The notes under the pieces: model-generated
Databases searched by the model: none
What the model was told of the DNA's origin: nothing
Seen by the model: only the letters and a program-made list of their open reading frames with translations
Shown: piece by piece, positions 18,313-22,219 of the stretch
How positions within the stretch are numbered: position 1 is the stretch's first letter
Layout of the letters: every line of letters starts with the position of its first letter
Program-made: the position numbers and the translations under genes
Source of the DNA: Escherichia coli
GTDB lineage: Bacteria > Pseudomonadota > Gammaproteobacteria > Enterobacterales > Enterobacteriaceae
Reading direction: 5' to 3' (one strand)
DNA: 64,000 bases
Assembly: GCF_017348835.2 (NCBI RefSeq)
Contig: NZ_CP071375.1

Positions 18313-20553
18313 TCAGAAGTGAGTGTTTACGCTCATATACAACGTACGTCCCGGCTCGTTATAGGTATACGCCCCGGCACCGGCGATATAGTTGGCCCCT
18401 GCCAGATCGCCCGTGGTCTGGGCATTACCCGCACGCCACAAACGTTTGTCGAACAGGTTGTCCACGCCGCCGGTCAGACTGACATTCTTCGTCACATCCC
18501 AGGTCGCGCTCAGACCCACAATGCTGTAAGGACTGATTTCTTTGGTTTCCGGGCCAACCGCTGGCTGACCTTTATAGTTGTACTTCTTCGGCTGCTGCTT
18601 ACCGTACCAGGTGAAGGTCGTTTGCATCGACAAATCTTCTCGTGCCTGCCAGCTCAGCGTTGAGTTCAACGTATACTCCGGGATGATCGACAAACGGTCG
18701 CCCGTGGTTTTGTTTTCACTCTTCAGCATATAAGTGATGTTATTAGTCCACATCACCGTTTCGCTAACCGGTACGTTTAACGATCCTTCCAGACCTTCAA
18801 CCACCGCTTTCGGCACGTTATCCCACTGATAGAGATCGGTGCCGACTGCGTTTTGCCCTACAGCCACATAGCCCGCTTCAATCTTATTGCGATAATCGTT
18901 ACGGAACCAGGTGACGCCCGCCAGCCAGCCGTCGCGTTTGAACTCCAGACCAATCTCTTTGTTGATGCTGGTTTCCGCTTTCAGGTCATCATTACCTTGC
19001 AGATAGCAGCCGCCCGCGCTGGCATAGCAACCCTGACCTTTACTGTAGAGAATGTAGTTCGGGTTAGTCTGGTACAGGCTCGGCGCTTTATAAGCACGGG
19101 CAATGCCCATTTTCAGCGTGAAGTCATCGCCTAAACCTTGCGATATGTTCAGCGCCGGGCTCCAGTTATTGCCAACTATACTGTGATGATCGAAACGCAG
19201 CCCCGGCGTTACGATGGTGCTGTCAGTCAGCTCCATATTGTTTTCGGCAAACAGCGAGAAAATTTCTGCTTTTGAATACGGGCTACGGTCGGTGGCACTC
19301 ACGCCATCAATAGCGCCACCGGTATTCGTTCCGGTCAGTGCCTGGGTGTTGGAACTTAAGTCCTTCATCCGCTGCTGATTCCACTCCGTACCCAGCGTCA
19401 GCGTCTGGTTAACGAGGAAATCAATCGGCAGGTTAACTTCGCTGTGCAGCATCACGTCATCAAGATCGATATCGACGAAATCCTGTGTCGCTTTTTCGTT
19501 AAATTTCCCTTCGGTACCGCCCGCCAGACCTTCCGGAATACGCGAGTTACGGGTGTGTTCGTACTGCACCCAGTTGCTGGTGGTCACGCCGTTATCCCAG
19601 CCACCGTTCCAGGTCAGCGAGTAGTTCTGGCGATACAGGCGGTTGGTTTCATCGCCATATTTCGAGCGAGTGTAAGCGTCAGAGTTGGTGTTCTGGGTAT
19701 CGCCCGCATACAGGTTACCCTGGCGGCTGTAACCCGCTTCCAGTTCGAGTGATTGCAGAGGCGCGAAGTCCCAGCGCACCACGCCATTAATATCTTTGTT
19801 GATCACCCCTTCGCGCCCGGCTGGTAACGTCGTGGCATACGTTCCGGCACGCGCGGACTGATGGCCCTGGTTGATATCCCACGCGTCAGCCTGAGTTTTG
19901 TCGAGGTTGCCATACAAGCGGAAGCTGAATTCGTCGCCCAGCGGACCGGTCAGGCTAAAGTTAGTGCGTTTGGTGGCACCTTCCTCTTTATGTTCTGGCG
20001 CATTGAAATATGCGTCCCAGGAGCCGTGCCACTCGCCGCTGCCTTTTTTGGTAATGATGTTAACCACGCCGCCCGCCGCGCCGTTGCCGTAACGCGCAGC
20101 TGCCGGACCACGCAGAACTTCAATACGTTCAATCATTTCAGGTGGCACCCAGGAAGTATCACCACGGGTATCGCGCTCGCCACGCCAGCCCTGACGCACC
20201 GAGTTACGGCTGCTTACCGGTTTGCCGTCAATCAAAATTAGCGTGTTTTCCGGACCCATGCCGCGAATATCAATCTGTCGGTTATTCCCACGCTGACCAC
20301 TGGTGGAGTTACCGGTCAGGTTAACGCCTGGCATGGTACGGATGATCTCCGACACATCGCGGGCAACCGGGTTTTTGCGGATTTCATCTGCGGTGATGGT
20401 CGAAACGCCAGGCGCCTGTAAGTTCTGCTCGGCGGCGGTAACGACAATAGTATCGTCATGTGAAACAGGAGTATCGGTCGGCTCTTGTGCCTGCGCTACC
20501 CCATAAATCCCCAGATTGACCAACAAGGCCAGGGAATGAATCTTCTTGTTCAT
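18313..20553 (-). CDS. fepA: FepA, TonB-dependent ferric enterobactin outer-membrane receptor
   Basis: ORF 18313-20613; start taken at MNKKIHSLALLVNLGIYGVAQA (signal peptide) giving 746 aa; C-terminal ...YMSVNTHF. Confidence 0.95.
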   Translation of the reverse strand: MNKKIHSLALLVNLGIYGVAQAQEPTDTPVSHDDTIVVTAAEQNLQAPGVSTITADEIRKNPVARDVSEIIRTMPGVNLTGNSTSGQRGNNRQIDIRGMGPENTLILIDGKPVSSRNSVRQGWRGERDTRGDTSWVPPEMIERIEVLRGPAAARYGNGAAGGVVNIITKKGSGEWHGSWDAYFNAPEHKEEGATKRTNFSLTGPLGDEFSFRLYGNLDKTQADAWDINQGHQSARAGTYATTLPAGREGVINKDINGVVRWDFAPLQSLELEAGYSRQGNLYAGDTQNTNSDAYTRSKYGDETNRLYRQNYSLTWNGGWDNGVTTSNWVQYEHTRNSRIPEGLAGGTEGKFNEKATQDFVDIDLDDVMLHSEVNLPIDFLVNQTLTLGTEWNQQRMKDLSSNTQALTGTNTGGAIDGVSATDRSPYSKAEIFSLFAENNMELTDSTIVTPGLRFDHHSIVGNNWSPALNISQGLGDDFTLKMGIARAYKAPSLYQTNPNYILYSKGQGCYASAGGCYLQGNDDLKAETSINKEIGLEFKRDGWLAGVTWFRNDYRNKIEAGYVAVGQNAVGTDLYQWDNVPKAVVEGLEGSLNVPVSETVMWTNNITYMLKSENKTTGDRLSIIPEYTLNSTLSWQAREDLSMQTTFTWYGKQQPKKYNYKGQPAVGPETKEISPYSIVGLSATWDVTKNVSLTGGVDNLFDKRLWRAGNAQTTGDLAGANYIAGAGAYTYNEPGRTLYMSVNTHF

Positions 20554-20720
20554 TGTTTTATTCCTGCATTTTTGCCACGAATTGCAACTGTCGGGCATGG
20601 TCGTCATCAACACGACGCATCCCGCTACCGCGAAAACCTTTGATCCTGAAAGACACGCAGTGCAGTTGGTTAATTAATGTCCGCGCTTCCCACGGCGCGC
20701 CATTACGCTATTGCAAATGC

Positions 20721-20747
20721 AAATAGTTATCAATAATATTATCAATA
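20721..20747. promoter_or_regulatory. Fur box(es) in the fepA / fes divergent promoter
   Basis: AAATAGTTATCAATAATATTATCAATA resembles the Fur consensus GATAATGATAATCATTATC; sits between divergent iron-uptake genes. Confidence 0.7.
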
Positions 20748-20795
20748 TATTTCTGCAATCAATGAAAAATTGCACAGTAAACATGGGGTTATGGT

Positions 20796-21998
20796 GTGAC
20801 GGCGTTAAAAGTAGGAAGTGAGAGCTGGTGGCAGTCGAAACATGGCCCGGAATGGCAGCGTCTGAATGACGAAATGTTTGAGGTCACTTTCTGGTGGCGT
20901 GATCCCCAAGGTTCTGAAGAATACTCGACGATAAAGCGCGTATGGGTCTACATCACTGGTGTGACCGATCACCATCAGAACAGCCAGCCCCAGTCGATGC
21001 AGCGAATTGCAGGCACTAACGTCTGGCAGTGGACGACACAACTCAATGCCAACTGGCGCGGCAGCTACTGCTTTATTCCCACCGAACGCGATGACATTTT
21101 TTCTACACCATCCCCCGATCGCCTCGAATTACGTGAAGGCTGGCGAAAACTATTACCCCAGGCGATAGCCGATCCGCTGAATCCACAAAGCTGGAAAGGC
21201 GGGCGAGGGCACGCTGTTTCTGCACTCGAAATGCCGCAAGCGCCTCTGCAACCGGGATGGGATTGTCCGCAAGCGCCAGAAATACCAGCCAAAGAAATTA
21301 TCTGGAAAAGTGAACGGTTGAAAAATTCACGTCGTGTATGGATTTTTACCACCGGCGATGTAACAGCAGAAGAACGCCCGCTGGCAGTTTTGCTCGATGG
21401 CGAATTTTGGGCGCAAAGTATGCCCGTCTGGCCTGTGCTGACTTCGCTGACCCATCGTCAGCAACTTCCTCCCGCCGTGTATGTGTTGATCGACGCTATC
21501 GATACCACGCACCGCGCCCACGAACTGCCGTGTAATGCGGATTTCTGGCTCGCAGTACAGCAAGAGTTATTACCCCTGGTGAAAGCTATTGCCCCTTTTA
21601 GCGATCGTGCCGATCGCACCGTGGTTGCCGGGCAGAGTTTTGGTGGGCTTTCCGCGCTGTATGCCGGACTGCACTGGCCTGAACGCTTTGGCTGTGTATT
21701 AAGCCAGTCAGGATCGTACTGGTGGCCGCATCGGGGCGGGCAGCAAGAGGGCGTGTTACTTGAAAAGCTAAAAGCTGGTGAAGTTAGCGCCGAAGGTCTG
21801 CGCATTGTGCTGGAAGCGGGTATTCGCGAGCCGATGATCATGCGGGCCAATCAGGCGCTGTATGCGCAATTACACCCCATAAAAGAATCCATTTTCTGGC
21901 GTCAGGTTGACGGCGGACATGATGCGCTTTGTTGGCGCGGTGGCTTGATGCAGGGGCTAATCGACCTCTGGCAACCACTTTTCCATGACAGGAGTTGA
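20796..21998 (+). CDS. fes: Fes, ferric enterobactin esterase
   Basis: 400-aa ORF starting at GTG 20796 (MTALKVGSESWW...); recognised by recall. Confidence 0.9.
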   Translation: MTALKVGSESWWQSKHGPEWQRLNDEMFEVTFWWRDPQGSEEYSTIKRVWVYITGVTDHHQNSQPQSMQRIAGTNVWQWTTQLNANWRGSYCFIPTERDDIFSTPSPDRLELREGWRKLLPQAIADPLNPQSWKGGRGHAVSALEMPQAPLQPGWDCPQAPEIPAKEIIWKSERLKNSRRVWIFTTGDVTAEERPLAVLLDGEFWAQSMPVWPVLTSLTHRQQLPPAVYVLIDAIDTTHRAHELPCNADFWLAVQQELLPLVKAIAPFSDRADRTVVAGQSFGGLSALYAGLHWPERFGCVLSQSGSYWWPHRGGQQEGVLLEKLKAGEVSAEGLRIVLEAGIREPMIMRANQALYAQLHPIKESIFWRQVDGGHDALCWRGGLMQGLIDLWQPLFHDRS

Positions 21999-22000
21999 AT

Positions 22001-22219
22001 ATGGCATTCAGTAATCCCTTCGATGATCCGCAGGGAGCGTTTTACATATTGCGCAATGCGCAGGGGCAATTCAGTCTGTGGCCGCAACAATGCGTCTTAC
22101 CGGCAGGCTGGGACATTGTGTGTCAGCCGCAGTCACAGGCGTCCTGCCAGCAGTGGCTGGAAGCCCACTGGCGTACTCTGACACCGACGAATTTTACCCA
22201 GTTGCAGGAGGCACAATGA
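22001..22219 (+). CDS. ybdZ: YbdZ, MbtH-like protein (partner of the EntF adenylation domain)
   Basis: 72 aa from ATG 22001 (MAFSNPFDDPQGAFYILRN...); AGGAG 7 nt upstream; stop overlaps the entF ATG (ATGA). Confidence 0.88.
   Translation: MAFSNPFDDPQGAFYILRNAQGQFSLWPQQCVLPAGWDIVCQPQSQASCQQWLEAHWRTLTPTNFTQLQEAQ

Follow-up and report, generated by a model that had tools for sequence, protein, structure and literature searches.

The fepA-fes intergenic region of an Escherichia coli strain carries the canonical Fur-controlled bidirectional promoter

The promoter-operator between fepA and fes of Escherichia coli K-12 (Pettis, Brickman & McIntosh 1988; Hunt, Pettis & McIntosh 1994; Escolar et al. 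1998) is a canonical, extensively characterised and already known bidirectional promoter under the control of Fur. According to Masulis et al. 2015 (PMC4469952), who cite Pettis et al. 1988, only 19 bp separate the two transcription start sites, and the overlap of the promoters is almost complete. A Fur DNase I footprint extends from 611868 to 611915 in U00096.2 coordinates (Chen et al. 2007, PMC2189734, Table 3, citing Hunt et al. 1994). The information-theory model of the same study describes four overlapping Fur sites in a 37-bp cluster at fepA-fes, the strongest of which, with 18.7 bits at 611889, is at a distance of 172 bp from fepA and of 149 bp from the fes ATG annotated at that time. 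ROSE defined the fepA promoter as TTGCAG-14-TATTAT, with a start site that could be observed in vitro and upon fur knockout but was not detected in the wild type (PMC10301672). Fur binding upstream of the fepA-entD operon was found by ChIP-seq together with Fur-dependent regulation, and a fepA-lacZ fusion was repressed by Fur (Beauchene et al. 2015, PMC4676285). In the passages of the Fur pan-regulon study considered here (PMC10164565), the Fur-1 iModulon includes fepA, fes, ybdZ, entF and entD, fes also belongs to Fur-2, and fepABCD and entBCEFS are Fur targets in 9/9 strains tested.

We analyzed a 64,000-nucleotide stretch of E. coli DNA (contig NZ_CP071375.1), hereafter called the window, which contains the locus of the K-12 system and agrees with it in genes, footprinted stretch and overlapping divergent promoters. 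RefSeq annotation of K-12 and of a strain that is 100% identical here shows the two divergent genes on either side of a 242-bp gap, and in the identical strain the gene order is entD, fepA (minus strand) / fes, ybdZ, entF, fepE (plus strand) (Table 1). The FepA translation begins with the residues MNKKIHSLALL. The gap (612495-612736 in K-12 MG1655) matched MG1655 with 100% identity, as did the adjoining coding sequences over about 14 bp on either side, and there were thus 0 differences in the 242-bp control region. An 801-bp query spanning the gap found matches in 5414/5426 complete E. coli genomes, where the matched site bears the annotations of fepA and fes. The identity to MG1655 and the RefSeq annotation thus agree with the preliminary description of this stretch as a fepA/fes divergent region. 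Because the control region is 100% identical to that of MG1655, the published K-12 experiments apply directly to the window sequence, and iron/Fur control of fepA-entD and fes-ybdZ-entF can be assumed in this strain.

Published coordinates were converted as window position = NC_000913.3 position - 591941 = old U00096.2 position - 591164. The offset of the footprint was derived from the distances of Chen et al. to the fepA start (-172) and to the old fes ATG (-149), together with the K-12 alignment; the strongest published Fur site then falls at window position 20725. In strain 720632, which matches at 100%, the region beyond entD (L001, positions 1-2937) carries IS150 and IS421 transposases and hokE.

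Table 1. Features of the fepA-fes locus and of the downstream genes, in window positions.
Feature	Position	Strand	Basis or remark
fepA CDS, ferric enterobactin outer-membrane receptor	18313-20553	minus	ATG 20553-20551; RefSeq, 100%-identical strain and K-12
fepA-fes divergent intergenic control region	20554-20795		242 bp
GC-rich inverted repeat CGCGC-N8-GCGCG	20682-20699		Next to the Fur array, on its left
Published Fur DNase I footprint	20704-20751		Hunt et al. 1994 as tabulated in PMC2189734, converted
Fur operator core	20707-20743		37 bp; hexamer scoring, consensus clusters
Inferred fes promoter	20711-20739	plus	-35 TTGCAA 20711-20716, 17-nt spacer, -10 TAATAT 20734-20739; sequence reading
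fepA promoter -10 TATTAT	20733-20738	minus	Promoter scan; same -10 in ROSE (PMC10301672)
fepA candidate -35 TTGATT	20762-20757	minus	18-nt spacer; promoter scan
fepA alternative candidate -35 TTGCAG	20758-20753	minus	14-nt spacer; PMC10301672
fes ribosome-binding site and start	20785-20798	plus	Conserved GGGG 20785-20788, 7-nt spacer, GTG 20796-20798
fes CDS, enterochelin esterase	20796-21998	plus	400 aa; GTG start 20796-20798
ybdZ, downstream gene of fes transcript	22001-22219	plus	RefSeq annotation converted from locus L001
entF, downstream gene of fes transcript	22216-26097	plus	RefSeq annotation converted from locus L001
Terminator-like hairpin	26111-26147	plus	Perfect 15-bp hairpin and U-rich tail; -15.5 kcal/mol, z = -4.1
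fepE	26313-27446		

Analysis of the control region started from a 27-mer, AAATAGTTATCAATAATATTATCAATA, that had been put forward as a tandem Fur-box-like sequence. It occurs once in the window, at 20721-20747, and 0 times on the other strand, and it is located inside the converted footprint. The tandem character was borne out by a direct repeat of TTATCAATA (20727-20735 and 20739-20747, 12 bp apart) and by a series of consensus matches phased by 6 bp. As a delimitation of the operator, the 27-mer is correctly placed within the published footprint but covers only its fes-proximal two thirds. The operator reaches 14 bp further left, through the equally conserved GCTATTGCAAATGC (20707-20720), and the last four bases of the 27-mer on the right side are poorly conserved. 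Similarly, the interval initially assigned to the promoter and operator, 20641-20795, contains the operator but is loose, the functional core being 20704-20751. The 37-bp operator core is composed of the hexamers GCTATT, GCAAAT and GCAAAT, a single-base spacer (a), and the hexamers GTTATC, AATAAT and ATTATC, which match a GATAAT-like pattern at 4, 4, 4 / 5, 5, 6 of 6 positions. The length of this array and its four overlapping sites are the same as those reported by Chen et al. (PMC2189734).

Every 19-mer of both strands was compared with the classical Fur consensus GATAATGATAATCATTATC. In the gap, matches followed one another in 6-bp register at 20713 (13/19), at 20719, 20725 and 20731 (12/19 each) and at 20737 (11/19). 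As about 31 window positions reach 13/19, the level of the best single 19-mer in the gap, a single match was too weak a criterion, and we used a phased-cluster statistic instead, i.e., the summed score of five sites in 6-bp register. The fepA-fes cluster scored 60 and was tied for second among the approximately 64,000 window positions. The top four clusters start at 32704 (entC), 20713 (fepA-fes), 30255 (fepD-entS) and 32577 (fepB), with the next best at 54, and they are the four known footprinted Fur operators of the ent cluster. The three others extend over 32704-32746, 30255-30297 and 32577-32619, respectively, and the best single 19-mers elsewhere in the ent cluster reach 16/19 at 30261 and 15/19 at 32595 and 32710. 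Dinucleotide shuffling of the 60-bp core, which is 75% AT, gave scores that reached 60 in 0.15% of 2000 shuffles (p ~0.0015). The Fur call at fepA-fes depends on the array and not on one box, no single 19-mer being strong.

The positions of the promoters relative to this array were then considered. The -10 hexamers of fepA and fes are read from opposite strands of the same AATAATATT (20733-20739), and the genes diverge over 242 bp from overlapping -10 elements, as is the case for a bidirectional promoter. From the position of its -10 hexamer, the start of fepA transcription is estimated near 20726, and that of fes is expected near 20745, both the hexamers and the start of fes being predictions from the sequence. 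The two estimates are about 19 bp apart, consistent with the published spacing (PMC4469952). Both -10 hexamers, the putative fes -35 hexamer and the estimated fepA start lie inside the operator core. The estimated fes start is just outside of it, and both estimated starts fall within the footprint. One Fur-coated stretch of 37-48 bp can therefore block both promoters at once, which corresponds to the published model of coordinated repression, and since the -10 hexamers share base pairs, no placement of Fur sites could silence one promoter and spare the other. The 1994 work of Hunt and colleagues is said to have described one fes promoter, two tandem fepA promoters and a single Fur site, and reportedly also hinted at 'other regulatory components' in the fepA-fes region. 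A terminator scan of the fepA-fes intergenic region found no terminator.

We propose that the fepA-entD and fes-ybdZ-entF operons share one Fur operator, the stretch from 20704 to 20751. Its six imperfect GATAAT-type hexamers would provide several overlapping positions for Fe2+-Fur dimers, 6 bp apart, on top of two sigma-70 promoters that lie back to back and overlap almost fully. When iron is sufficient, Fur would coat the stretch and keep RNA polymerase off both promoters together, and when iron is scarce, Fur would leave and both operons would be transcribed. We assign a probability of roughly 95% to this reading, i.e., one Fur operator over two overlapping back-to-back promoters that provides coordinated iron repression. 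The footprint, the coordinated repression and the derepression in fur mutants come from published experiments. This analysis contributes the motif statistics, the sequence conservation and the support for the GTG start. That Fur represses both fepA and fes, as the preliminary description had it, is upheld by the published footprint, by the derepression in fur mutants and by the overlap of the operator with both promoters.

The conservation of the region was analyzed by phylogenetic footprinting. Scanning species-representative genomes for Fes gave 37 loci, in 19 of which fepA is divergently adjacent to fes. The intergenic regions of these 19 loci were aligned with the window, and the resulting 20 sequences represent Escherichia, Citrobacter, Leclercia, Kluyvera, Enterobacter and an 'Erwinia' isolate. 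The loci in which Fes is not encoded beside fepA (Pseudomonas, Mangrovibacter, Iodobacter and Aeromonas) were excluded from the footprint. The scan was pattern-limited and returned 0 Salmonella or Klebsiella loci, so that the comparison rests on 20 other species. The divergent arrangement is thus retained in 19 loci besides that of the window. In the 20 species, ACGCTATTGCAAATGCAAATAGTTATCAATAATATTATC (20705-20743) shows 99% mean identity, and most of the flanking sequence shows 52-72% (52-68% in the fepA leader and 72% at 20744-20780). The block thus conserved corresponds in position to the hexamer array and is contained in the DNase I footprint. Among E. coli genomes, an 88-bp core is at least 95% identical in 5414/5426 genomes, i.e., in all 5414 carriers.

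In a 75%-AT region that carries promoter hexamers, motif score and conservation could partly mirror recognition by RNA polymerase. Carried to its end, this argument would make the conserved AT-rich block an overlapping promoter core only, with a likeness to Fur boxes that stems from its AT-richness and with iron control exerted elsewhere or indirectly. The block does hold both -10 hexamers and the inferred fes -35 hexamer, and the modest best single match, common in the window as noted above, agrees with such a view. However, the 6-bp-phased cluster exceeds 99.85% of the composition-matched shuffles and ranks beside three footprinted ent operators, and the 39 bp that are conserved continuously, spacers included, are more than promoter hexamers need. 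In addition, the published DNase I footprint covers exactly that stretch (PMC2189734), and the fepA start becomes visible only when Fur is missing, be it by knockout of fur or in vitro (PMC10301672). A mere promoter core is thus hardly credible at all. A different arrangement would consist of two separate Fur operators, one per promoter, with each of the tandem boxes serving one gene. The two copies of TTATCAATA might be taken as such boxes, and two distinct footprints are indeed present at the neighbouring fepB-entC (PMC2189734). At fepA-fes, however, the hexamer array is unbroken over 37 bp, Chen et al. (PMC2189734) give a single footprinted region with one cluster, and both -10 hexamers occupy the same base pairs, which makes a division of the operator between the two genes very improbable.

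The GC-rich inverted repeat beside the Fur array belongs to the early part of the fepA leader. With respect to fes, it is upstream of the -35 hexamer and precedes the inferred start by about 45-60 bp. Its right arm, GCGCG (20695-20699), is invariant in 20/20 species, even in Kluyvera, which has no left arm, and the loop GTGGGAA (in the fepA sense) is kept in most species. No compensatory variation was found in the repeat among the 20 species, and the predicted fold of the hairpin was not above that of shuffled sequences (z = -0.67). The repeat might represent a separate cis-element, either a site for a second factor that acts on both promoters or a stem-loop at the 5' end of the fepA mRNA, and we regard this as a rather unlikely, tentative suggestion. 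Folding of the 187-nt fepA leader (z = -0.21) and of the fes leader (z = +0.15) gave structures no more stable than those of shuffled sequences, and an Rfam scan of positions 20300-21000 at E <= 1 detected no RNA family. A riboswitch- or attenuator-like reading is unsupported, given that the fepA leader, the fes leader and the GC hairpin fold like shuffles.

We also examined the translation start of fes, for which GTG had been proposed. The GTG at 20796 is the first in-frame start past a stop codon at 20778-20780 and the only one before a conserved N-terminal motif, G-S-(E/D)-x-W-W, and it follows a suitably spaced ribosome-binding site (Table 1). The sole other candidate is an ATG at 20874, i.e., codon 27, which corresponds to an older annotation of K-12 with 374 aa. 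Initiation at this internal ATG would be in line with the 2007-era coordinates (-149 from the Fur site), which show that the ATG was annotated then, and with the Pfam N-terminal domain model, which begins at residue 29. However, Met27 is variable across orthologs, in that several Escherichia lineages and all non-Escherichia orthologs compared have Asn, Thr or another residue in its place, whereas the motif upstream of it is conserved in 19/19 orthologs. Furthermore, the GGGG found 7 nt before the GTG is conserved, the GTG is retained at the aligned start position in most orthologs, and both the K-12 record NP_415117.2 and PGAP use it. Fes sequences in the PDB include the N-terminal residues, and that of the Salmonella Fes structure aligns from residue 3. 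Translation from the internal ATG is therefore very improbable. The start at GTG 20796 is supported, and the unique in-frame start, the spaced ribosome-binding site and the conserved N-terminal motif uphold the initial proposal.

The sequence ATG GTG TGA (20791-20799) forms a two-codon mini-ORF that is out of frame with fes and overlaps its GTG start. In Citrobacter, one extra base brings the mini-ORF ATG into the fes frame, where it precedes the conserved GTG by two codons. This ATG is out of frame in all Escherichia compared, so that the GTG is the sole possible start there.

Downstream of fes, the plus-strand genes are tightly packed up to entF, with a 2-bp gap between fes and ybdZ and a 4-bp overlap between ybdZ and entF. 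By contrast with this packing, the assignment of fepE to the fes-ybdZ-entF transcript is not secure. The entF stop (26097) and the fepE start (26313) are separated by 215 bp that contain a perfect hairpin (Table 1), whose AT-rich arms ATAAACCCATAATTG...CAATTATGGGTTTAT form a 15-bp inverted repeat followed by a U-rich tract. In appearance, this element resembles an intrinsic terminator or a palindrome for protein binding. Because of this strong terminator-like hairpin just past entF, the co-transcription of fepE with fes-ybdZ-entF is doubtful. In the portions of the Fur-1 and Fur-2 iModulon gene lists covered here, fepE does not occur (PMC10164565). Isolated 13/19 matches to the Fur consensus are present at 26079-26110, at the 3' end of entF, and at 26382-26406, just inside fepE. 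The best cluster sum near them is 51 (start at 26079), below those of the true operators, and these matches are probably due to chance in AT-rich sequence.

Altogether, the canonical iron switch that controls the operons of the enterobactin receptor and esterase is present and intact in the window. The region can serve as a positive control for motif scans, in that a simple phased-consensus statistic returns the four known ent operators as the top four in 64 kb. Its value is limited to a check of the annotation, and no open question is advanced by it.

The fepB-entC region, one of the other Fur-controlled regions of the ent cluster, differs in this strain from that of MG1655. The fepB leader of the window strain is without a 186-bp GC-rich repeat-like segment (CCCTCGCCCC...GGGGAGAGGG...) that K-12 MG1655 carries, and the fepB-entC intergenic region (32570-32757) measures 188 bp here versus 374 bp in K-12. 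The fepB Fur site is about 10-40 bp from the fepB start codon in the window. The missing segment indicates that the window strain is not MG1655, despite the identical fepA-fes region.

In terms of the recognized sequence, the fepA-fes operator conforms to the classical Fur box GATAATGATAATCATTATC and to the hexamer-array and overlapping-dimer models, with NAT(A/T)AT-type hexamers of both orientations, forward and reverse, and a one-base spacer. Its overlapping 19-mers are 6 bp apart, as described for all footprinted sites by Chen et al. (PMC2189734). It departs from the classical box in its left three hexamers, which are weak (4/6 each, with GC at positions 1-2), so that no single 19-mer rises above 13/19. 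Like fepA-fes, fepB-entC and fepD-entS are divergent pairs of iron-regulated promoters with clusters of Fur hexamers, and their scores of 58-64 are similar. In contrast with fepB-entC, where two separate footprints are found about 115 bp apart (PMC2189734), there is one operator at fepA-fes, and it serves both genes because their promoters overlap almost completely.
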